55,099 bases of DNA from an uncultured Candidatus Peribacteria bacterium (GTDB lineage: Bacteria; Patescibacteriota; Gracilibacteria; Absconditabacterales; Absconditicoccaceae): contig CAZBFX010000001.1 of the NCBI GenBank assembly GCA_964491325.1, forward strand, positions 1,807 through 56,905, read 5' to 3'. Within the stretch, counting starts at the first letter, position 1; each line of letters opens with the position of its first letter. The notes beneath the pieces were generated by a model. That model had not been told where the DNA came from and did no database searches. It saw only the letters and a list, made by a program, of their open reading frames with translations. Positions 14,406 through 43,200 of this stretch are shown here, piece after piece. A program made the position numbers and the translations under genes.

Positions 14406-16382
14406 TTACAGAGTATTTTCTTGTTTTTTTCGTCTCACTTTCTCATCCCAGAAGAATGATCCAGGACTTTTGCCACTCTTCGCCTCTTTGAGTTTCTCTC
14501 TATCTCATCATATATCTTCATAGAGCGATTCGAAGAATTCTTCATTACCTTTTTTGACTTTGTAGTTGCGATCAATATATGTCTGTACCGTATCGTCTTT
14601 TTCCCATTGCGAGAGATTGATCGGTTTTGTTCATCGGCTTCTTTGGTATTCTTTGTTGTCAGCGACGGCTTGCAGATATGACTGTATGCTATTTCATAGA
14701 GTAGTATTTATCTTGCCTATGCTTATAGATGGGTTGTCTTTATGGTATTGCTCGAGCTTTGTATTCTTTAATACTTTCCTATATTCTTGGAGTCATTCGC
14801 TGTTGTATATAAAATTACCCCTTTGTGCTTTATTGGTAAATGTATTGAAATATTGTCTCTCTCTCGCCGGCATAACTTGCTCTAGTCATACAGTTGATCT
14901 TAAACTATTTTCAAGTTTATCCAAACCTTCAGATCATTTATTTTTTATATCTATTGTATCTTTTATTTCACTTATCTTATCTCTTCACCATTTATACGCA
15001 CTACTCGTACCTATACTTTTGCCACCACCTATTGGTATGATCGGTATAGAGCCGAGTAGTTGCGATGATAGATCTTTCATCTTGCCGATGGCTGCTCCTC
15101 AGATACCTGGCTCACTGTACTTGCTGATACCCCATATCATCCCTCGAAGGAGTCCGATCGTGATAGCAAACATGAGCAGATCACTGAATACATTTTTTAC
15201 TCTATCGCCATTGTTGCTATCACCGAAGAGATCTCATTCGATAGTAGTAGAAAACATATTCATCCCTGCTATCGTTGATGCTCCATTGCTTTCTTGCTTT
15301 ACAGAGATAGTATCGTTTATGCTAATGTTATTTGATTGGATAACGCTATCCATCGTCACGACTAGTATGAGGAGTATGCCTATCAGAGCAGTACTGACGA
15401 CAGGAGCAAATATTATCTTGATGACATTTTCTACGCTAAAATTTTCTAAGATTGATCATGCTAATTCTTCGCCCTTTCACATTCGGTCACCGCTTTGCAT
15501 GACTGCCAGGAGAGGAGCGAGACAGATGAGAAATCGTATCGATATGATTCTATAGAGATTTATAGCTATCAACATAATCAATGCTACCGTGAAGAGTAGG
15601 ATGATTCATACTCTGGTGAGTAAGAGCAGGAGGATGTCAGAGGTGGATGTTTGTGCATCTATACTAGAAAGATTGCTAGCTTTGAGAACATAGGCACCGA
15701 TATAGATTAGCGGTCACGACATGCTATTCTCACGGGGCATGATAGTATCCATGATTTCGTCCTCAGTCATGGTATTTACTTTGCCATCATCGTGCGTGAT
15801 CATATTGCCTGAATCTCGTTCTTTAGATAAGTCTATACTCATTTTCTTATTATTAACGCTTTTGATATTTGTGATGATCTCTTCTCTTAGTTGTGGCATC
15901 GTACTCATATAGGTCGATGGAAATGATCAGACTGCTATTGTCGCTACGGTACTTACATCTATCAATGCTCCGATCAAGAAGAAGCTCATATTTGCTAATA
16001 TAATCCCTTTGATGAGGCCTAGTATGGTTTTGGATATTTTACTGAAATCCAAGTCTTTTTCTATAATACTTGTCACAATAGTATACATAAACACAGCTAC
16101 CGCTACAAAATTTGCAAATGTCTGTGATATGCCCCATATCAGTCTGAGTACCTTTCCTAGATTGAGGAAGTCTCCGTAGACCATCGTATTGGTCATCAAT
16201 GCTCCTGCAATACTGGCGAAAGGTATTCGCAACCATGAAAGGAGCTGGAGTATGATATTTAATACATCAACAATGTCTTTGGTCAGCATCGTATCGTTTC
16301 ATGCTGCAAAAACACTATCTGACAAACACAATGTGCAGATGATGAAAGTGGTGATGATTGTGAGACGACGTGTGAGTGACAT
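14406..16382 (-). CDS. large polytopic membrane protein, paralog B (658 aa), unknown family
   Basis: Hand-translated codon by codon with TGA=Gly. Signal-like N-terminus MSLTRRLTIITTFIICTLCLSDSVFAAG, multiple TM helices, and motifs shared with the upstream paralog. Charged C-terminal region. Stop TAA 14406-14408. Confidence 0.7.
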
Positions 16383-16406
16383 GATTAATTGGTGCTGGTA
16401 ATTGGT

Positions 16407-19133
16407 TTAATTTACTGATGCATTTGGATCAATCGGTTTTGTTCATGTAGTAGTTGTAGATGGTTTATCAGAGATGGTAAACTCTTTGTTTATGTCATCG
16501 TACATTAATACTTGATCAGATCATTCTATCTCTACTGGTCAGTTTGATATCGTGAAGCTACTTCTATTATTATCTATTAAGTCTTTGTTTTCGGTTGTAT
16601 TAAACTCGCTTAAGAACTTTTTTGCTTGCTCCATATTCGCCACTTTTTTATCGATTACATAGCTTTTCATTTTATTGTCTATATCATTTACTTTCCTCTC
16701 TTTTTGAATTATGTCTGTTAAGGCTGTTTTCTTTGCTTGATTTACTCATTCGAGTTCTTTGATAAACTCTTCTAACTGTTCATTATTCATATTATTGATA
16801 GATGTTATTAAGTCGTCCGTACTCTCACTGTTTTCTTTAGCTTTAGTTTGGATGATGTTTTTTATCTCACTAGATTTACCGAGGTTTTTGCTATTTAACT
16901 CAGTTGCTATACTTGTCTTTGTCTTCCCTGAGAGAGATCAAAAGATACTGGTAGCTCATGCATTGCTTGTTGTGTTATTTCATAGTTTGTTGTTCATCTT
17001 CTCTTCTAGTTCTTGTAGTGAGCGTTCTCCTGCGGTAGTGATTTGATTGAACTTACTACTTGCTACATTGCTAATCGTATCGGGCACTTTGAGAAGACTA
17101 CTGGCACTGAGTTTGGCACCTCATGTGCCTGGTATAGGAATGAGTGGTATAGATCAGAGGAGGTTTTTGCCCATATCGAGCGTCTTGTTTGCTATGCTGG
17201 ATGTGATCGAGCTTGCGGCAAAGGATGCTTTTACAATCGCTCGCATGATACCTATAGCGAGTATATTGAGTATGATCCATCCGAAGAGATCATTATAGAT
17301 AGATCCAGTCTCCGTATCGCTACCAGTATCATAACACATCTCGGTGAGTCACCAGAAGTCAGCACATGTTTCGTTGTTATCATCTTTGTTGTCGCCTACT
17401 CAGCTTGCTTGGAAGTTTACTCCCAAGAACCCTCGAGTACTCTGTGATTCGCCGAGTCACTCATGCATACGGAGCTGGAGCGTCTGTATGATGATCATGC
17501 CTATCCCCAGAGCGAAGACTGGTACGACAGGAGCGAAGATAAGTCATATAACTGCCTTGGCACTTGTATAGCTTTCTGTGCTTCCTGATATACTTGATAC
17601 TATACCGCTTTCTTTGAAAACTCGTAATACGACGATAAATGGTGAGAATGCTATAATCGCTCGAAGTATTCATACTCTCATCAGTAGGACTAGTGCGAGA
17701 GTGATGAGCGGTATGATCATAAAGATGGCAGCCACCGCTTTCATGATAAACTCTATGATGACGCCCACACTTGTCGTATCTTTCATCGTATCGGATACTG
17801 ATGTGATATTGGAGAAATCCAAGATGGATATATAGATCGTGACCAATGGTCAGACAAGTCATTGTGACTTTTCCATCAACTCTTCGAGAAAGAGTCATCA
17901 TTGTCCTTGCATGCGACTATCGCCACTAATGATCGCCATGAGGCTTGATGCTGATGCGACATTATTGATAGTTTGACCACAGACTTTCTTGTTTTTGTCA
18001 TTGATGTTGGTGCCGATAGCACTACTCATGAGTTTTTCTATATCATTTTTGCCGATAGTGCTGTACGTGCCTGTTATTTCATTGCATGTGCCGCTTGAGG
18101 CTATGTGATCGAGGATGATTGATACTTCATGATTGATACGCTTATTGATTTCGTTCTCTTTGGCATTTACATTTATATCGTTATCTATACTTGCTTGGAT
18201 GCTATCATAGAGTATCGCTCTTTTGTGTGTCTCGAAGTCTTTGAGATCGATAGCTATAGTCGGTCAGAGTGCACAATAGAGGTGTTCACAATTGCTCGAT
18301 TTTCATGGGGCACAGGTATTGGCGAAGTTTATCCCACTCATTGGTTTGCCATGTTTATCTAGTACATATGGGTATTGTGTTGCACCGATAATATATCCCT
18401 TATGGACTTCACAGGTCGGTATAGTGACTGATCATCGTGAATAGTAGACATGATTGTTTATAAAACTATTATACTTCAATAATGAGGTCGTTATATCATC
18501 ATCTGCTGTGGTGCTTCATGGAGTAGTGGGAGTGTCGCTATCATCGGTCGAAAGATTGAGATAGGAGTGGATCATCATGATAGGCATCTTCTCCTGACGG
18601 ACCTGATTTAGTGTCGTCATCGGTAGAGCACCGATGCCATAGGTAGCCACCGTCGATACATCGAGTAATGCACCCAAGACAAATCGGCTTGCATTGATGC
18701 CGATACCGGCAATAACAAGATTGATAACTATCTTTTTTTTATCAACGTTTTCGCCACTTGCCATCTTGATAATCTCGGTGATGAGTATGGCGACGAGGAG
18801 GAAGTTTGCGAATGTTCTCGATATATTTCGTAGCAGAAACAGAGGTTTATCGAGGTTGATAAATCAGCCATAGATGAGAGTATTGTCCATGGCAGTGCCT
18901 GCCAATACGAGTATTGGCCATATGATGATATAGATGATATTGAGTATGACTCCTAGTAGTATCTTGATACTGTCAAATATATCACTACCGGCATCTGCAG
19001 TGGCATCTGTTACTCCTTGGGCAAAGGCATGATCTCCTGCAGTGACAAATACTACTATAGCAAAAATACTGAGCAATAGCGGTAGATGCTGTCTTATCTT
19101 TTGATATAAAGATGAAGGTGTGTTGCTGATCAT
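16407..19133 (-). CDS. large polytopic membrane protein, paralog A (908 aa), unknown family
   Basis: Hand-translated. Signal-like N-terminus ..LLLSIFAIVVFVTAGDHAFAQG, a Cys-containing central soluble region, TM bundle, and Asn/Lys/Glu-rich C-terminal region that looks coiled-coil by eye. Fragments 18864, 18516 and 17154 are in one frame. Stop TAA 16407-16409. Confidence 0.7.
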
Positions 19134-19308
19134 GAAGAAGAGATGGACAAAGTATATCTCTAGTATACTCTATTTACTCTTTCATACCAAAAATACCCAT
19201 TCTCTGATGCTTCTTGTGTTGACTTGTCGCTATGTTTCCTTATAGATGTTTTGTGTGATATTCTTCATGATATATGTCATTTATTCTTTATTGTTTGATT
19301 ATATGTTT

Positions 19309-19907: not shown

Positions 19908-20993
19908 TTATTGTATTTTCTCTACATCTTGTGGAGAGAAGTGTATAGTATAGCTATTGGGCATCTTCTTGATCCGAAAGATATAGATATGTATCCCAAA
20001 AAAAAGTAAGCCCATCATGACGAATAGTATCCATTTATTGATGCTATTGGTTCATTGTAGGAGCATGAGGATCATCATAACGAGTGACCATATCCATACA
20101 AACCATCTGACTTCGGATCTTGACCAGCCATTTGCTAGAAGCCTATGATGCAGATGTGTATAATCTCATTTCATGGGATTCTTTTTTAGGATGAATAATC
20201 TATTGAATATAACCCATATAAAGTCAAATACCACTAATGAAAGTACGACAATAATCGTTCATACTTTGACGCCTCATAATAGCGAGAGATAGGCAAGAGA
20301 GAATCCATAAATGATCGTTCCTATATCTCTCACTAGCCCATGGGGTTTGTATTCTACGACAGTATATACAAGTGATGCTATAGTGACTGCTAATGCGAGA
20401 TATGATGTGATACTCAACTGCTCGTAGGTGGAAGGATTCAGAGAGATATACTCTTGGAGTATGATGAAATTGATAACGAACCATATACTTCCTGTGCCGA
20501 TAGCTGTGACGCCACTAGATTGTCCTTCGATACCATCAAAAAGATTGATAGCATTTGTACATATAATGAACCAGATAATACTGATAATCATCGCAAATCG
20601 ATGCGGTAATGATAGTACTTCATCTCATCAGAGGCGTATAGAGTCTATAGCGATTCATCCATATCATACGACTATGGTAAAAGTGAACAGTTGCATACAC
20701 AATCTGAGCCGAGAGGGGATGGGACGGTAGAGATCTATCGTACTGATCGTTCAGAGTACGATGATGGCTCAAGCATAGATCAAGAACGAAGGATGATCTC
20801 GATATTGTGGAGCAAGTATGATAAAGCCAGCAAGGATGCTAATGCCGGTTCGTATTCATTGTGCATTAACGACGGGCTTTCTCTTGTAAAAATCTGCTCG
20901 TTTTTTGTGTTCTCGTATACCAAGATAGCGAAAAAGTGCTATGCCTGACAGAGCGATGCTTATTATAGCGATGCAAGCTATGATATAGTTCAT
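19908..20993 (-). CDS. glycosyltransferase family 4 polyprenyl-phosphate HexNAc-1-phosphate transferase (WecA/TagO-like)
   Basis: NAINLFDGIEGQSSG (NA.N..DG.DGL), DYTHLHHRLLANGWS (WecA-type D..H.HHRL), about 10 TM helices. Continuity checked. Stop TAA 19908-19910. Confidence 0.85.
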
Positions 20994-21022: not shown

Positions 21023-22189
21023 TTATCTATGCATGTCGATAAAATGAGGAAGAATGATGCAATGAGCGTCAGGATGTCGTTGGTGTACTATGTCTTGCAT
21101 AAATCATGAGGGTACTATATGTATATCGATAGATTGACGCAATTGTTTATGGATAAGTGATATGAGTATATATTTGTATATTACAGCGACTATGATGAGA
21201 GGGTTTCGTGTTCTTGCTGAACATATTCGTCATCGTAGTGACCACGCAGCGGGCAGTTGTTGGATATGTGAGACGCTATGGGGGAAAGGATGAAAGAGTC
21301 CTAGATCATGATAGGTTATCATTGTCTGTAGTGTGGGTTTGTGTGGTTTTGTATGGCTTGCATATTTTACTTTCTGGATCTGTGCGAGCGTATACCATCC
21401 TATATGTCTCAGGATACTATGATACCAGATAGTCCCATCTCAGTGTATCCTATGAGAGAGCCATGACCACGGTTTTCAATTATATATACTGAGGAACATA
21501 TGCCATAGTCTCTGAATCTTTCATTTCATTCATGGTAATCAGCCACTTTGCCGTAGATGTATGTTGTATCACATAGCATCTAATTTGCTCCGTATAGTAT
21601 CGAGATGTGTTTCGATACCTCCGAGCTGTTTGTTGCTATAATCGCTCATGAGGATGATGGTGTGATGCTGTATGATATGCGAGATTGACTTTGCTCGCGA
21701 TTCGGCAGTGAAGTTTTTTTGTATATTGTGTATTCGGTCAGTAAATATATCTTTTGTTATATTTCATCTGCTTATGCTGTCGAGTGTGTTTGCAAGATCC
21801 TTTGGGGCGGTCTGTATATTATCAGTATCAATATGCAGGAGAGGATGGATAAATGGCTCACATCATCATTTTTTATTGCCTATAACGGGAGTGCCAAGCA
21901 TCAGTGATTCGAGAGCAGTGAGTCCAAATGTCTCTAAAAATGTCGATGGCATGATCATATAATCACATGACTGTATATGGTGTTTAATTGCTTCTTTCCA
22001 TACTCGGCCATGGTAGATGATGTATCATTCATTATGTGCTATACCTTTGATCTTATCGGTATATGCTCACACACCACAGATGTGTAATATATCCTCAGGA
22101 TGTTGTGTATGATGTGCTAGAAAAGCGTCAATTAATATATCTATACCCTTTTCTCTATCTAATCTCCCGATAAACAGATATGATGTCAT
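21023..22189 (-). CDS. GT-B (GT4-like) glycosyltransferase with circularly permuted domain order
   Basis: Single 388-aa reading frame, every codon checked. The first half is a GT4 C-terminal domain (FIGRLDREKGIDILIDAF..PSTFLETFGLTALESLMLGTPVIG). The second half looks like a GT4 N-terminal domain (HTIILMSDYSNKQLGGIETHLDTIRSKLDAMGYNIHL..IVPSGFMQDIV..IILPHFID). Confidence 0.65.
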
Positions 22190-22333
22190 GGACACTATTT
22201 TTATAGTAAAGTGCATTTTGCTCTATTTTGTATTGCATTCGTCGGTGATAATATGTATATTGCTGTGTATTGTCAAATCATAATGATCTGTCTATCTGTC
22301 CGAACTCAGACTTTGCTTATCAAAATATGCTCC

Positions 22334-22404
22334 TGGGGAATCATCTAATGGTAGGATAGTGGCCTTTGAAGCCATATGTCAAGGTTCGAATCCTTGTTCC
22401 CCAG
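22334..22404 (+). tRNA. tRNA-Gln (UUG)
   Basis: Cloverleaf: acceptor TGGGGAA/TTCCCCA, anticodon loop CTTTGAA, T-arm CAAGG-TTCGAAT-CCTTG. No encoded CCA. Confidence 0.85.
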
Positions 22405-22462
22405 CTTTTGCAGGCTTGGATTGTCAGAGAATTATATTTGCCGTATGATCGTACAACATGTC

Positions 22463-22543
22463 GCCGGGGTGATGGAATGGTAGACATGCCTGGCTTAGAA
22501 CCAGGTGCTTTACGGTGTGCAGGTTCAAGTCCTGTCCCCGGTA
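22463..22543 (+). tRNA. tRNA-Leu (UAG)
   Basis: Acceptor GCCGGGG/CCCCGGT, anticodon stem-loop CCTGG-CTTAGAA-CCAGG, long variable arm, T-loop TTCAAGT. Confidence 0.85.
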
Positions 22544-22573
22544 TGTTGTTCATTTGTATGTTAAATTGTTTGT

Positions 22574-22645
22574 ATGCGGGGTAGAGAAATGGTGTCTCGT
22601 CGGGCTCATAACCCGAAGATAGGTGGTTCGATTCCATCCTCCGCA
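22574..22645 (+). tRNA. initiator tRNA-fMet (CAU)
   Basis: Close to the E. coli tRNA-fMet layout: GCGGGG.., anticodon stem with three G-C pairs (TCGGG-CTCATAA-CCCGA), ..CCTCCGCAA 3' end. Confidence 0.8.
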
Positions 22646-22657
22646 ATGATAATTTCA

Positions 22658-22730
22658 ATCGGAAATAGCTTAATTGGTAGAGCATCTGACTCTGAATCAG
22701 AAGGTTCAAGGTTCGAGTCCTTGTTTCCGA
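22658..22730 (+). tRNA. tRNA-Gln (CUG)
   Basis: Acceptor TCGGAAA/TTTCCGA, anticodon stem-loop TCTGA-CTCTGAA-TCAGA, T-arm CAAGG-TTCGAGT-CCTTG. Confidence 0.8.
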
Positions 22731-22797
22731 GTATTGATTTTGTCTTGCATTACAGGAGGAGATTATTATACATGCACTTACCGATTTACATATATTT

Positions 22798-22870
<73 letters not shown>

Positions 22871-22907
22871 TATTATCTCATTTTATTAGTTTATATATCT
22901 GTGACGT

Positions 22908-23174
22908 ATGCCAATAACATCTTCCGCTAAGAAAGCTATGCTCCAATCTAACAAAAAAAGATTGGTCAATAAGAAATTCAAAGATGATATGAAGATATCT
23001 ATGAATGTTTTTGTTAAGAAAATAGAAAAGAAAGAAAAACTGACTGATAAGGATGTAAATACTGTCTATGGTAGGATAGATAAAGCTCTCAAGAAAGGTA
23101 TTATTCACAAAAATAATGCCGCAAGAAAGAAGTCTTCCATAGCAAAAATGTTTAATACAGTATCAGGAAAATAG
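22908..23174 (+). CDS. rpsT: 30S ribosomal protein S20
   Basis: Intact ORF MPITSSAKKAMLQSNKKRLVNKKFK...GIIHKNNAARKKSSIAKM, the S20 signature (HKN.AAR.KS). Confidence 0.9.
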   Translation: MPITSSAKKAMLQSNKKRLVNKKFKDDMKISMNVFVKKIEKKEKLTDKDVNTVYGRIDKALKKGIIHKNNAARKKSSIAKMFNTVSGK

Positions 23175-23213
23175 TTATATCCTCTCGTTGATCATTAGCA
23201 CATAATCTTTTTT

Positions 23214-23285
23214 GCCAACTTAGCTCAGCGGTAGAGCTACCGCCTTGTAAGCGGTGGGTCAAGAGTTCAAATCTCTTAGTTGGCT
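23214..23285 (+). tRNA. tRNA-Thr (UGU)
   Basis: Acceptor GCCAACT/AGTTGGC, anticodon stem-loop ACCGC-CTTGTAA-GCGGT. Confidence 0.85.
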
Positions 23286-23295
23286 TTCTTTTTTT

Positions 23296-23369
23296 GGAGT
23301 GGTAGTTCAGTTGGCTAGAACGCCCGCCTGTCACGCGGGAGGTCACGGGTTCGAGCCCCGTCCATTCCG
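23296..23369 (+). tRNA. tRNA-Asp (GUC)
   Basis: Acceptor GGAGTGG/CCATTCC, anticodon stem-loop CCCGC-CTGTCAC-GCGGG. Confidence 0.85.
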
Positions 23370-23413
23370 AATTCTTATACATTTATTGGTCTAGACAGTG
23401 ATCTGTTGCCACT

Positions 23414-23488
23414 GGTCTCATAGTTTAGTGGTTAGAACAGGGGACTTTCAATCCTCTAGTCGGGGTTCGATTCCCCGTGGGACCGCCA
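23414..23488 (+). tRNA. tRNA-Glu (UUC), CCA encoded
   Basis: Acceptor GGTCTCA/TGGGACC, anticodon loop CTTTCAA, 3' GCCA encoded. Confidence 0.85.
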
Positions 23489-23495
23489 TTAATTT

Positions 23496-23572
23496 GGGTG
23501 ATTAGCTCAGTTGGCTAGAGCATCTGCCTTACAAGCAGGGGGTCGTAGGTTCGAGTCCTACATCACCCACCA
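23496..23572 (+). tRNA. tRNA-Val (UAC), CCA encoded
   Basis: Acceptor GGGTGAT/ATCACCC, anticodon stem-loop TCTGC-CTTACAA-GCAGG, 3' ACCA encoded. Confidence 0.85.
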
Positions 23573-23610
23573 TTATTATTATGGACATATGTCCCTACCT
23601 TCTCTTCTCA

Positions 23611-23684
23611 GGGCCTATAGCTCAGCTGGTTAGAGCAGTCGACTCATAATCGATTGGTCCCTCGTTCAAGTCGAGGTAGGCCCA
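23611..23684 (+). tRNA. tRNA with CAU anticodon, probably tRNA-Ile2 (lysidine) rather than elongator Met
   Basis: Acceptor GGGCCTA/TAGGCCC, anticodon stem-loop GTCGA-CTCATAA-TCGAT. The variable region TGGTC and T-loop TTCAAGT resemble E. coli tRNA-Ile2. tilS is present in this window. Confidence 0.7.
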
Positions 23685-23701
23685 ATCTTATCTCTTTTTA
23701 T

Positions 23702-23775
23702 GCGGATGTAACTCAATTGGCTAGAGTCACTGCCTTCCAAGCAGTTGGTTGCGCGTTCGAGTCGCGTCGTCCGCT
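23702..23775 (+). tRNA. tRNA-Gly (UCC)
   Basis: Acceptor GCGGATG/CGTCCGC, anticodon stem-loop ACTGC-CTTCCAA-GCAGT. Confidence 0.85.
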
Positions 23776-23845: not shown

Positions 23846-25267
23846 CTATTTTCCTTTGCCAACAAACAATACTGTAACAGTTGCTAGTATAATATAGAGA
23901 TCAAGAAAAATAGACCAGTTTTGTAAATAGAGGAGTTCCTTTTCTGCTTCTTCGTCGAAGGAGATGGTGTCTCTTCCATGTATCTGGGCATAGCCAGTAA
24001 TGCCTGGTTTTACTGAAAGCACTCTTTTGTGCCGAGCTTTATACTTTTCTATCTCATGAGGCATATGTGGTCTGGGTCAGACCAAAGACATTTCTCCCAT
24101 CAATACATTTCGTAGACTAGGTAATTCATCAAGCGATGTAGCTCTTAGAAATTTACCTACAGGAGTCACTCTCGGATCATTTTCTATTTTTGCTAGTTCT
24201 CATTTTCTGACATTTGCTTTTGAGTTTACTAACTTTTGGTATAGATCTTCGGCACTCTTGCCTCCATAATCTTTTCAGGGACTAAGATGTGTATACATAC
24301 TACGAAACTTCACAAACGTAAATGATTTCATATTTCTCCCTATTCTTGTCTGTTTGTAGAATATAGGTCCCGACGAGTTTACTTTGATAGCTATCCCAGT
24401 GATGATAAACAGCGGTAATAGTATAGCCAATCCTAGAGCACTTACTATAGTATCAAAAAATCTTTTGATAAGTATTCACCATCATTCTAACTCTGTCGCT
24501 CTATATCTTAAAGCCAACATATTCCCTATTTTACTTGTTTCATAGGATACATCCTCAAGAAAGTGATTGTCTGCTATATGATACAGCTGTTGATTGTGTA
24601 GTCTCACACTATCAAATATGTTTTGTATGGCATCTTTATCATAGCTTCCAATAAGTACTATCGTATTAAAATTATTGATATCTACTTTATTGTATGAGTT
24701 AGTATAATCTACATATGTAACAGAATAGTAATGTGGTCGTTTATGATCTTTGATATTATGATAATGTACTTCTTCACGATACAGTATGAGAATCTTTTCA
24801 TTATCTTTTTTAAATAGATGGTGTGAAATGCGTTGCCAAAATATATCAAAAAGAGGTATAAATATAAGCGTCCCTGTGGCTGCTCGTCCAATAATAAGTC
24901 TCGATATGCCATAAGGGAAAAGAAATCCTTGACCAAAATATGCTAAGCATATCAAGATAATCGTTCGCTGTCACCACACATACAAAAATGAACCATTACT
25001 TGTGATGCCTATGTCTGTCAGATTGTATCGTTTTTTTACTATTCCTACGCCGATAAATACTACAACACTGATGATGGCGAATAGTATTAATTCTGTTGTG
25101 TCAATGAATGGTATTCTGAGATGCCATCATGGTATGCCATCTGTTATGAGACGAGTATAGTATCCTAGAAAATATAAAAAGAATATAATCAGACTGTGGA
25201 AGAGAGGTCTCGCTAGATTAATAAATAGGTCTTTATGATCTTTTCGTCGACTATTATGCATCATCAT
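23846..25267 (-). CDS. polyprenyl glycosylphosphotransferase (WbaP/EpsL-type bacterial sugar transferase)
   Basis: C-terminal PF02397-like domain: [61 protein letters not shown]-terminal TM region. Fragments 23846 and 24482 are in one frame, and the gap was checked for stops. True TAG stop. Start is one of the ATGs at 25259-25267, or 25297. Overlaps the rsmI 3' end. Confidence 0.85.
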
Positions 25268-25961
25268 TGTCACTATCAATAAAAGCTCCTCATCCATGAG
25301 GATAGATGCCTATAACAAACTCTCCCTTTAGAGGGATGATGTTTTGATTTATTGCTCCTTGTATTTCTTCTAAAGTACCGGTATAGTATTGTTCAAATAC
25401 TTTTGATATTTCTCTTGTTATGCTCAGCTTACCACTGAATCACAATGTTGTCAGCTGTGAGAGAAGTTTATCGATTCTATGGACTGATTCGTAAAAAAAT
25501 GATGCATGATCTGCATGTATCATTTGCTTGAGTGCCGTTTCTCTTCACTTTTTATGAGGAAGGAAACCATAAAAAGACCGCTTTACTGTGGGAAATCATG
25601 ATCCAATAACCGCTGGTATAATGGCATTTGCTCAGGGAAGTATACTATATGGAATATTGTTTTCTTGTGCCCATAGTATCAGTAACTTTCATGGATCAGA
25701 TAATCCGGGAGTTCACGCTTCGCTGACCATACAGACATCTGACTCTTTCATTATATGTATAAAGTTTTCTTTATGGCGAAGATCATGTGATGTGAACTTT
25801 ACAAACTTTTTTGTGCTATAGCCTATATTGTGTATGCCAAGAAGTCTTTTGATACTTTGAGTGTTCTCACAAAAAATGATGCTCGTCTCAGTCAGCAACT
25901 TTAGTGCTCTGAGTGTAATATCATCTTTATTGCCAATAGGTGTCGGTACAATGCATAGCAT
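25254..25961 (-). CDS. rsmI: 16S rRNA 2'-O-ribose C1402 methyltransferase RsmI
   Basis: MLCIVPTPIGNKDDITLRALKLL..IFCENT..VSEA(G)TPGLSDPG is the tetrapyrrole-methylase-fold RsmI signature. Continuity checked. Stop TAA 25254-25256. Confidence 0.85.
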
Positions 25962-40190: not shown

Positions 40191-40229
40191 TACTCTATTT
40201 ATCATAAGATTACGAAATGTCATTACTTT

Positions 40230-43200
40230 TTGTCTGCGGAGGCTGTCTCTTTTTGCTTTATTATGATATCAGCCTATACTTTCGGTAGAAATATTTTACC
40301 CATATGGTATAGACAGATGGCATCAGGACAATCACAGGATCATGCACAGGATCGTATTGATCTTCATATCAGTCAGACGGGGAATACATTCTCTGCTAGT
40401 GATTTACAGAAGATCGATACTATTCTCGAAGCGTATATAGTCGACAATAGCGATAATTTCCATAAACTTATCGAGAATAACCCCCAGACTTCACTGGATG
40501 ATATCATAGACAATGCCTGATTATTGCTCGATGATATGCTTGTATCTCCCGATAAAGGTGAGAAAGAGATATGGCAGTTTCTCATCGATAGCAAACTAGC
40601 ATGATTGGAAAAACATACAGAGATGTTGGCAAATATCACGCAGTACAAGAGCGAACTCAAGTGACTCAAGATAGCTGTCGCTCAGCGAAACCTTGGCGGG
40701 AATGCTCCGTCAGATAAGACGAGTGTCGTCAAAGCGACCACGAATACTGTCTCTGGAGATGAAGAACAATCAAGGGGTAAGTCTATTGATCAATCCTGTG
40801 TCGGTTGTAAAATACCTGTTTTAGAACATGAAGTGTCAGATACAGAAGATATGCAGCATCCAGCAGTCGATGTGGTTCCTGGTAAACAATGAGAAAGACT
40901 CGAAGATCGTGCATGACCTGATAATACAGTCAGCAAAGTTCCTTTTGGTCCGCTCAAATGATATGTCCCTGGACAATGATATCTTGTCGATAATAAGGGT
41001 GCAGATGGAGGAGAGAATACGAGATACGATATCGATGGGAAAAACGAGAAAAGAGTCGATAGAAAAGCCATGAAAAAACTTTTCCTATGAGGCATAAGTT
41101 GATTTCTCAATCGTCCAGAGAAAGAAGTCGATATGGTCGTCGAAGGAGAGAAGATAGGACCAAAGCATAAAAATGAACTGAAGCAGTTCTGGAAAGCTGT
41201 CAGAAAAATGGGTGTTGATAATTTCGGTGAATACTTTATTGATGTAAGAGATGCTTATGGAGCTGGTCATGATATTACATCCAAAGACTTCTGGAAAGAT
41301 GCAGACTATACTAGTAAAGTAGCTAAAAGAAAAGAATCTAAAACACTTGCTCTCATCGGTACTATCTATACGAACTATAGAGATCTCGAAAATAAACCAT
41401 ACTCAGGGACATATATGGAGAGACTTATTGGTACAATCGAAAATGATATCGCCGATAATGCACGAGAAGATAATATTGCTGGCGAAGATAATGCTGATGC
41501 AGAAGGTAATACTTCTTATCAGTCATTCGATGCAAGTAAATCCTACAACAAACATAATGATAATGCCGAGGTGACACTTGCTGATGATCACCATATCTTG
41601 ATCAATAAAACAAGTAGACTTAATGAATCGCTCAATATCGATGAGAGAAAGTGAGTGAAAGAACTCTTCAAGCTTAATGGAGATAGAGATACTCTCTATG
41701 ACTTCGATGCAGTGATGAAAGTAGTCCGTCAGCATGAACATAAGAAGATCGATGTCGCTAACGTCATCAATGCAACTGCCAAGTGAAAAAAACTCATCGG
41801 TCCTAATGGTAGTCTCAATGATCAGGAGAAAGAACTCTATGAGACACGACAGCAAATCGATAATGATGATACATCGACGCAGAGGATGGTCATGGAGTGA
41901 CTTGCTATGGGTATGAGACCAGAGTATATCGCCAATGTAAAGATGTTGATCGATAAGACAGGATATATTGATGAAAATGAAGTATTTCATGAGAACTGAT
42001 TAGATCATGAGCAATATGGTAATGAAGCAGATGGTGGCATTATTACTCCTGAAGTTCACTTCGTGGGATGTATCGAAGATATCACCGTCAATGGTAAGAC
42101 AGACTTCGGAGATAAAGGTATCATGAGTGGTCTCCAGTTTCGTGCACTGTTTCAGACGGCAGTGAATGAGATAGCATTTGATAGATCATGTTCACACCAT
42201 GAAGCTCAGCAGAGAGCAGTCTACAATATCGTCTGTTTCGTCTCTCAGAAAGCTCTCGAACTCTGACACTATGATCTTCATAGTCACCTCCAAGCTGTCT
42301 TATCGAAGGCAGTCGATGGGAAACTGGATGCGACATGACTAGTGAAGAGTGGTGATGGGTTTCTCTCTCTTCACCCTGGCTATCTCAAAGGATTTCAGGA
42401 TATTATGCTCCAGAGTCCTGTCCCTGTCGATGCCATCATGAAGTATGGTACTACTGGCTTTGTTGAAAATCAAAAAGAAACGAAGCGTTCATTCGATAAG
42501 TATGCAGAACAACTCGGTGTATCCAAAGAAGAACTCGATAAAATCAATAACTTTGGTAGTACGCAATGGAAGAATCTCATGTCTGAAGCTGCTGAGAGAA
42601 GTATGACAGATATGATTGCGGGAGAAAGAGAGGCTTTTATCCAACAGATCAATGCTGCTGTCCTTGACTATGTCATCCAAACGAGAAATGCTGGATGAGT
42701 CGGTGTAGGAGTAAGTGCATCACTTGATACTATACTCAAAGGACTCTCTGCACATCTCGCTCTCGGTGTGGTCTGATGAGATGGGTCAGGTAGTTCGCCT
42801 ATGGTATGATTCTCTCTCGGGCATCATGTCGATATGGGAAGATGACGATCACTCAATACATGAGCGTGATCGAGTCTCACACTTGCTGGATTTACACCAT
42901 TTCTCGGACAATCGATCAGCAAAGAACGAGAACTCAATAAAGATAAACTCAAGAAAACACTCGATGCAAAGCCTCTCGTCACTGCACATGTCGGTGTCAA
43001 CTATGGTGTCGTCATGTTTGGTCCTATCGTCTCACCGACTATCGGTATCCACACTGGTATCGACATCAATCGTCAAGCAGGTATCGAACGTGAATATGCT
43101 GCTATCCGTACGAAGATGAAATCCGTCACCGATAAGCTCTTCAAGATTGATTGATTACTCCCAGATCTTACGACTATTAGAAGCTCTGCTGTCCTCTTTG

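Follow-up and report, generated by a model that had tools for sequence, protein, structure and literature searches.

Gene, reading frame and genetic code

The 55,099-nucleotide stretch of DNA analyzed here (the window; positions 1,807 to 56,905 of contig CAZBFX010000001.1, assembly GCA_964491325.1) comes from an uncultured Candidatus Peribacteria bacterium that GTDB places in the Absconditicoccaceae (Gracilibacteria; Absconditabacterales). The gene in question lies on its reverse strand and is very probably that of a functional glycosyltransferase (GT) of the GT4 type, with a GT-B fold, that is a natural circular permutant. The coding sequence and the parts of its product are as follows.

21023..22189, (-): coding sequence of the permuted GT4 glycosyltransferase, 388 amino acids plus TAA, with 13 in-frame TGA codons read as glycine
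21677..22189, (-): first half, residues 1-171, a "C-terminal-type" Rossmann domain (Glycos_transf_1) that binds the donor, and after it the helices with which canonical GT4 chains terminate
21662..21676, (-): junction, residues 172-176 (IIQHH), at which the old C-terminal helix passes directly into the first strand of the N-type domain
21026..21661, (-): second half, residues 177-388, an "N-terminal-type" Rossmann domain (Glyco_transf_4)

A first-pass annotation of the window, made by a model from the sequence alone, described a 388-residue open reading frame (ORF) bounded by TAG at 22223 and TAA at 21023. This is borne out by a codon scan, which finds 13 in-frame TGA codons and not a single TAA or TAG between the TAG at 22223-22225 and the TAA at 21023-21025. 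Under translation table 11 the interval 21023-22225 (-) contains 13 stops, every one of them TGA, and an intact 388-residue ORF requires genetic code 25. Across the window, the fraction covered by ORFs is 0.21 with table 11 and reaches saturation with table 25, in which TGA is a sense codon. At the conserved columns 41, 108, 109, 207 and 220, where the window gene has TGA, homologs carry either glycine only or tryptophan, the latter in code-4 translations, and the sole relative translated under code 25 (P0045) has glycine in each of these columns. Since the homologs carry glycine (or code-4 tryptophan) at the conserved TGA columns, the reading of the window under code 25 with TGA as glycine, which had been assumed at the outset, is supported by the alignment. 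Of the 82 ORFs of the family, 79 contain in-frame TGA codons (median 8).

The start codon at 22189 gives the protein of 388 residues, and a start at the alternative ATG, at 22216, would lengthen it by 9 residues. Most homologs begin 2-5 residues ahead of the F-x-G-R-L motif in an alignment of 42 members, and the start at 22189 is therefore favored. One uninterrupted ORF encodes both domains in the window, so that the gene is not of the two-gene, split kind described below for some relatives.

Reversed order of the two domains

The first half contains the motifs FIGRLDREKG (residues 6-15), E86-x7-E94, which lies inside PSTFLETFGLTALES, and GNKKGG; the motifs quoted from this half in the first-pass annotation were thus recovered at these positions. 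The second half contains TIILMSDY...GGIETH, HS..R, YHDLGLFHPFP, HIVPS and LPHFID and ends where canonical GT4 chains enter the inter-domain linker. The Pfam model Glycos_transf_1 (PF00534) matches residues 4-115 with 77.9 bits against a cutoff of 26.4, and Glyco_transf_4 matches residues 190-387 (profile positions 2-169/170) with 16.4 bits, below its cutoff of 28.5. The two models therefore hit the halves in which they had been predicted, Glycos_transf_1 the first and Glyco_transf_4 the second. The second-half match rises above the cutoff, to 34-48 bits, in more divergent relatives (P0029, P0041, P0045 and P0049). All 9 relatives that were tested share the swapped Pfam order of the window protein; it is the other way round in P0062, a canonical GT4 used as a control.

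The evidence that carries the permutation is an hhalign comparison in which a profile built from the family alignment was set against one of canonical GT4s (P0054-P0065). The native family profile aligns in two non-collinear pieces: query positions 6-179 match canonical positions 214-382 (E=1.4e-25) and query positions 184-385 match canonical positions 2-204 (E=1.3e-13, probability 98.1%). Judged by the E-values of both halves, the swap is far beyond chance. When the profile is rotated at residue 172, it gives a single match of 360 columns (7-376 onto 2-376, E=3.5e-39) with a score of 289.6, compared with approximately 300 summed over the two native pieces. The rotated alignment passes unbroken through the artificial junction, where '...ILPHFIDMHR' runs into 'MTSYLFIGRL...' opposite the canonical '...kpNFv-(linker)-lFIGRL'. 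Relative to canonical GT4s, about 8-10 linker residues are absent at the cut and about 3-5 are kept on each side of it.

Comparison with individual enzymes gives the same picture. The native first half reaches to within approximately 5-15 residues of the chain end in the solved structures of PimB', BshA, TarM and GtfA, and the rotated profile is collinear across the junction in WaaB, BshA, WbnH and the Pyrococcus abyssi glycogen synthase (PaGS). Because the native profile reaches the ends of GT4 chains and the rotated profile crosses the junction, the old termini are fused and the new termini lie in the inter-domain linker. What is found is thus what defines a circular permutant: homologous segments that are rotated, collinearity that is restored by re-rotation, old termini that are joined and new ends at a former internal site. 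The canonical order of N-type domain, linker, C-type domain and terminal helix is not that of the window protein. These profile alignments uphold the first-pass description of a GT-B protein of family GT4 with the C-type Rossmann domain ahead of the N-type domain and its termini in the linker. That description would have failed had the second half shown no similarity to a GT-B N-domain; this was looked at, and the hhalign probability of 98.1% is accompanied by matches to GT4 structures. A phmmer search of the PDB with the native or the un-permuted single sequence gave 33.3 and 35.8 bits, respectively, over the C-domain only, and is nearly uninformative.

Structure models

AlphaFold2 was run, with a 42-sequence alignment, on the same protein from another assembly (P0001), which has tryptophan at the 13 TGA positions. 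The model consists of two beta/alpha domains, with a predicted local distance difference test score (pLDDT) of 89.8 and a predicted TM-score (pTM) of 0.87. At the junction a helix (residues 171-179) is followed by a loop and a strand (residues 186-191), and the pLDDT is 93-95 over residues 171-190. Foldseek, which is a sequential aligner, matches the model to the P. abyssi glycogen synthase, PimA, MshA, TarM and GtfA over approximately 165-185 columns per GT-B target, with a query TM-score (TMq) of approximately 0.35. Matching one domain at a time is the behavior expected of a permutant.

A database fragment that contains the second half only (P0051) was also modelled, with a pLDDT of 91. Its PDB matches are led by GT-B enzymes of the GT4 type (GlgM, MshA, 7mi0, 7qsg, BshA, PglA and TreT) over 214-236 columns with TMq of 0.45-0.51, and some dihydroxyacid dehydratases are interleaved among them. 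The structure prediction that had been proposed as a check thus yields a confident model, each predicted half of which separately matches GT-B enzymes.

Conservation and distribution of the permuted gene

The same gene with the same neighbors is present in three independent ENA assemblies, and the window gene differs from one of these copies (L001) at 8 of 1194 nucleotide positions. A more distant relative with 35% GT identity (P0011, at locus L005 on an 822-kb contig) has the gene order YidC, RsmI-like, Bac_transf, tRNAs/S20, GT and PF00953, as in the window. Among 42 aligned sequences, 25 columns are invariant and these are spread over both halves. The invariant residues of the first half include R9, L10, E13, K14, M80, S82, F84-F88 (including E86) and K107, with E94 kept in at least 90% of sequences, and those of the second half include D183, E193, N237, R261, H294, K339, H357, P360, S361 and H382. 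On this alignment, catalytic motifs are conserved in both halves and the gene is under selection.

These observations bear on whether the domain order is an artefact, namely a chimeric misassembly, a call that spans two genes or a decaying pseudogene. The 13 apparent stops of the table-11 translation and the occurrence of a few frameshifted relatives are what an artefact would produce. However, every internal stop is a TGA, which is a sense codon in the window genome; the gene and its neighbors recur in the three assemblies; more than 250 collinear homologs, down to 26% identity, have invariant motifs in both halves; and, with a tRNA array upstream and a WecA-like gene downstream, no partner half-gene is available for mis-joining. 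Misassembly and pseudogene decay, both named in the first-pass annotation as possible refutations, are excluded by the three assemblies and by the conservation of both halves, and the probability that the order is artefactual is negligible. The frameshifted relatives (L066, L071 and L077) are themselves permuted genes and could be sequencing errors or pseudogenes.

A first search recovered approximately 50 full-length collinear relatives. When 1.84 billion representatives were searched exhaustively with a profile, 255 clusters (at 50% identity) reached E<=1e-30, and nearly all of the best 150 are single, collinear, full-length matches. Orthologs with the identical order, which had been suggested as worth seeking, are therefore abundant: the C-then-N order is found in 259 of the 318 proteins collected and at 76 loci from GTDB species representatives. 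The permuted loci are labelled SR1, Absconditabacteria, Gracilibacteria, Patescibacteria or (at NCBI) 'Peribacteria' only, and carriers include SR1 HOT-345 and Candidatus Vampirococcus lugosii. Among the hits found, the permuted family is confined to genomes of the Gracilibacteria/Absconditabacteria type, as labelled in the databases. A phage origin was considered and rejected: the hits in phage records were limited to the first half (the Glycos_transf_1 region), and none was full-length. The window protein is not covered end to end by any NCBIfam model.

Canonical-order and split relatives

Relatives with the canonical order, and relatives whose halves are separate genes, were newly found here and go beyond the first-pass annotation. 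The canonical-order (N then C) clade comprises 34 clusters (P0168, P0185 and P0207-P0238) of 406-425 residues, which have the subfamily's own motifs and an intact linker (LPHFVFDSD...NLISFGR). The N-domains of this clade score 145-184 bits on a hidden Markov model (HMM) of the permuted second half, compared with 12-23 bits for generic GT4s. When the clade is used as a query, the next matches after its own members are permuted proteins, aligned over only 47% of the query. In a neighbor-joining tree the permuted and canonical forms make up a clade relative to generic GT4s in 195 of 200 bootstraps, and the canonical-order set is monophyletic in 198 of 200. Distances to the outgroup are saturated in this tree, so that the family is unrooted and the direction of change is not placed; the canonical clade joins the unrooted tree among permuted lineages.

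Neighborhoods of the canonical clade are unlike those of the permuted genes, and none of Wzy_C, WecA, RsmI or MurG is found nearby. Members of the clade at L088-L092 (P0168, P0185, P0210 and P0232) are in TGA-recoded genomes with a GC content of 22-26%. In the donor domain the clade has an insertion of approximately 20-30 residues, placed after the G-x-G strand and before the strand that follows. One permuted subgroup (P0041, P0043 and P0045) has it at the same site; judging from the aligned sequences, the insertion is a possible shared derived character of these proteins.

Split forms are of several kinds. At L093 (4910-6600) a 179-residue first-half gene, a Sua5/YrdC gene and a 199-residue second-half gene follow one another; each half has its own ATG and TAA, and the halves cover their HMMs in full with 168 and 217 bits. 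Both are nearest to a permuted subgroup (P0239, P0240 and P0070) that, of the permuted sets, is also the nearest to the canonical clade, and the locus lies in the RsmI...ComF-MurG slot in which Vampirococcus and L100 have fused genes. Because the slot is shared with fused genes and the halves are nearest to a permuted subgroup, the split at L093 is probably secondary. Four species have a conserved stand-alone first-half gene (approximately 185 residues) with a TAA exactly at the junction. In these genes (L079, L080, L081 and L084), T-H-R-(I/L)-D-x-E-K-G replaces (V/F)-G-R-L-D-x-E-K-G, and no partner was found within approximately 4 kb. Stand-alone second halves are represented by P0189, P0199, P0203, P0204 and P0205. 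Lastly, the metagenome-assembled genome (MAG) JBDHUX01 (GCA_039809405.1, Absconditabacterales AS-MESO-3CA.148) has a first half on contig 30 (L085, 2345-2953) and, unlinked to it, a second half on contig 47 (L098, 484-1113), and this pair of sequences suggests a heterodimeric GT4.

Origin of the permutation

Tandem duplication followed by truncation is the textbook route to circular permutation, and it was the route proposed in the first-pass annotation. In that scheme a duplicated gene is fused in frame (N-C-N-C) and the outer N and C domains are then lost. The clean placement of the new termini in the linker, with a few linker residues remaining on each side, is what this would leave behind. 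However, no N-C-N-C, N-C-N, C-N-C or degenerate remnant is present among the 318 proteins or the top 150 representatives, and the longer members carry low-complexity tails or loop insertions rather than partial domains. While the permutation itself stands, the proposed route to it does not fare as well, with no intermediates seen and split forms in existence; duplication and truncation is a tentative explanation.

The split relatives point to another route, in which the enzyme came apart into N-type and C-type subunits that functioned as a heterodimeric GT-B, and the subunit genes were reordered and fused again as C then N. The subfamily itself includes natural split forms (L093), the halves in JBDHUX01 lie on different contigs, the stand-alone C-halves of four species end exactly at the junction, and canonical, split and permuted forms are nearest neighbors in the trees of both domains. 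Against this, the L093 split looks secondary by its slot and its nearest permuted subgroup, the family root is unplaced owing to the saturated outgroup distances, and the JBDHUX01 evidence comes from a MAG whose completeness is not established. Fission and re-fusion is considered at least as plausible as duplication and truncation, and is a serious possibility that nevertheless falls somewhat short of being probable. A more far-reaching reading is that the GT4 subfamily preserves canonical, split and permuted states as a living record of fission and re-fusion, with a functional heterodimer and an order that, given where the canonical clade joins the unrooted tree, has perhaps flipped more than once. 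This is speculative and on balance unlikely.

Genomic neighborhood and predicted function

The features that flank the gene and bear on its function are listed below.

19908..20993, (-): WecA/MraY-family polyprenyl-phosphate sugar-1-phosphate transferase, 361 amino acids (Pfam PF00953, 50.5 bits against a cutoff of 27)
22248..22276, (-): candidate promoter, TTGACA-17-TATTAT, an 11/12 sigma-70-like match just upstream of the GT start
23846..25297, (-): second initiating transferase (Bac_transf / EPS_sugtrans), 483 amino acids (Pfam PF02397, 207.7 bits)

The WecA-like gene begins 29 nt downstream of the GT stop on the same strand. In NCBIfam its product scores 53.8 bits over the full length of the WecA model TIGR02380 (cutoff 326) and 29.4 bits on the MraY model (cutoff 192); by these scores it is closer to WecA than to MraY and is a member of the family whose subtype is not assignable. 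The pairing of the GT gene with a WecA-like gene is conserved in L001-L003, L005 and L008. The second initiating transferase reaches 303.9 bits on NCBIfam TIGR03025, above the cutoff of 295.55, and is located upstream of the GT gene beyond the tRNA array, a synteny that is repeated in L005 at 35% GT identity. The number of sigma-70-like matches around the GT start is not above the shuffled expectation.

Within approximately 4 kb of the 76 non-redundant permuted loci, Wzy_C lies immediately upstream in 33, RsmI/MurG (with or without ComF) are present in 7, and a WecA-like gene is present in 3, all in the near clade of the window. The first-pass annotation had placed the enzyme in the glycoconjugate pathway of the adjacent WecA-like transferase. 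The adjacency holds, at 29 nt and conserved in the near clade; a shared pathway is suggested by it, and beyond those 3 of 76 loci the adjacency is absent.

The best-supported reading, which draws on genomic context and motif conservation, is that of a retaining GT4 that would extend an undecaprenyl-linked envelope glycan. The nucleotide-sugar-binding Rossmann domain, normally C-terminal, comes first in the chain; a connector of 5 residues leads from its terminal helices to the first strand of the normally N-terminal, generally acceptor-binding domain, and the chain stops at P-H-F-I-D, where canonical enzymes enter the linker. The active-site cleft would be built from the same two domains, linked by a single covalent crossover, from the old C-terminus to the old N-terminus, where canonical enzymes have two, and the free chain ends would sit at the former hinge. 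Conserved residues on the donor side are R9, K14, E86, E94 and K107, and on the acceptor side D183, E193, H294, H357-x-x-P-S and H382. The reaction proposed is the transfer of a sugar from a nucleoside diphosphate (NDP)-sugar to an undecaprenyl-(pyro)phosphate-linked intermediate of an envelope glycan. In the window genome the acceptor may be what the adjacent WecA-like enzyme produces, and in other lineages the enzyme may act in a pathway with an adjacent Wzy_C-type polymerase or ligase, or beside MurG. Since split versions exist, neither inter-domain connection is indispensable, and the permutation would thus be tolerated.

Several points weigh against this reading. The Glyco_transf_4 score of the window protein is below the cutoff, so that the N-type assignment leans on family profiles and models. 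The modelled protein carries tryptophan at all 13 TGA positions, and the Foldseek output gives column counts alone, without the identity of the aligned residues. In addition, 33 of the 76 permuted loci have no recognized glycan gene within approximately 4 kb, and the context is variable. The fold could have been kept and catalysis lost, leaving a scaffold or regulator for neighboring envelope enzymes. The weak Pfam score of the N-domain, the lack of an NCBIfam model that covers the window protein and the variable context would all fit such a role. However, the GT4 signature (G-R-L-x-x-E-K-G, E-x7-E, the Gly-rich loop and the N-type His and Asp) is invariant or nearly so in 42 members; such invariance is not expected of a pseudo-enzyme, and a noncatalytic role is accordingly improbable. 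A functional, permuted glycosyltransferase is the preferred reading.

Other features of the window

TGA is a sense codon (Gly, code 25) throughout the window (1-55099), every gene of which is fragmented by table-11 tools. Many database homologs are code-4 translations with tryptophan at glycine positions. The GT operon is separated from the Bac_transf gene by an array of 11 tRNA genes at 22334-23775 (+) (Gln, Leu, Met, Gln, Asn, Thr, Asp, Glu, Val, Met and Gly-UCC), which lies on the strand opposite to both and in which the gene for ribosomal protein S20 (22908-23174) is embedded. No tRNA with a UCA anticodon was found within the window.

Two large predicted membrane or surface proteins of 658 and 908 residues are encoded by adjacent genes at 14406-16406 (-) and 16407-19169 (-). 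They are paralogs, with 43% identity over 111 residues and 24% over 335 residues, and the pair also lies beside the GT/WecA pair in the syntenic locus L005, where it has no Pfam match. Giant ORFs are present on the forward strand at 40191-45929 (1912 residues), 45890-49114 (1074 residues) and 49123-55099 (at least 1992 residues). The latter two have signal-peptide-like N-termini and common repeated segments (25-27% identity), and the three giant ORFs probably encode surface proteins.

Significance and comparison with known systems

GT-B is one of the two dominant glycosyltransferase folds. To our knowledge, it has been described with a fixed order, in which an N-terminal acceptor domain is followed by a C-terminal donor domain. 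A conserved family with the reverse order, together with its split relatives, indicates that neither connection between the domains is required. With this family, nature provides a system in which to test how the connectivity of the hinge affects open/closed motion and catalysis, and a precedent for engineering GT-B scaffolds that are permuted or split. The presence of all three forms, canonical, split and permuted, in one subfamily makes an unusually complete set of states for studying the origin of a permutation. Annotation pipelines under-describe the family, as the Glyco_transf_4 half is often sub-threshold and no NCBIfam model fits, and gene calls under code 4 or code 11 fragment its members or put tryptophan for glycine. 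The gene is widespread among bacteria of the Candidate Phyla Radiation with an episymbiotic or predatory lifestyle (such as SR1 HOT-345 and Vampirococcus), in which it is associated with envelope genes; the surface glycans of these bacteria are barely characterized.

The best sequence, profile and fold matches of the window protein are canonical GT4s. These enzymes (PimA, PimB', MshA, BshA, WaaB, PglA, TarM, GtfA and the P. abyssi glycogen synthase) have the same two Rossmann-type domains and share with it the signatures F-x-G-R-L-x-x-E-K-G, E-x7-E, the Gly-rich loop after N-strand 1, H-x-V-P-S and P-x-F. In the window protein, however, the order is reversed, the linker is cut and the old termini are fused. 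The canonical-order sister clade resembles it in its subfamily motifs and TGA-recoded genomes but differs in its N-then-C order, intact linker and other neighborhoods.

The eukaryotic Alg13/Alg14 enzyme and its bacterial two-gene homologs are bipartite, with GT-B domains that work without a covalent linker. Alg13/Alg14 belongs to a GT1/GT28-like lineage rather than to GT4, and is split rather than permuted. The split relatives described above (L093, and L085 with L098) are the GT4 counterpart of Alg13/Alg14, whereas the window protein is a single chain.

A full-text literature search, itself incomplete, returned no natural circularly permuted GT-B enzyme, and the GH70/GH13 pair was the only relevant precedent. 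GH70 glucansucrases are natural circular permutants relative to GH13 enzymes, with the same catalytic fold and motifs in a rotated order (PMC11046441). The permutation in GH70 takes place inside the single (beta/alpha)8 barrel of a glycoside hydrolase, whereas in the window protein, a glycosyltransferase of two domains, entire domains have changed places.

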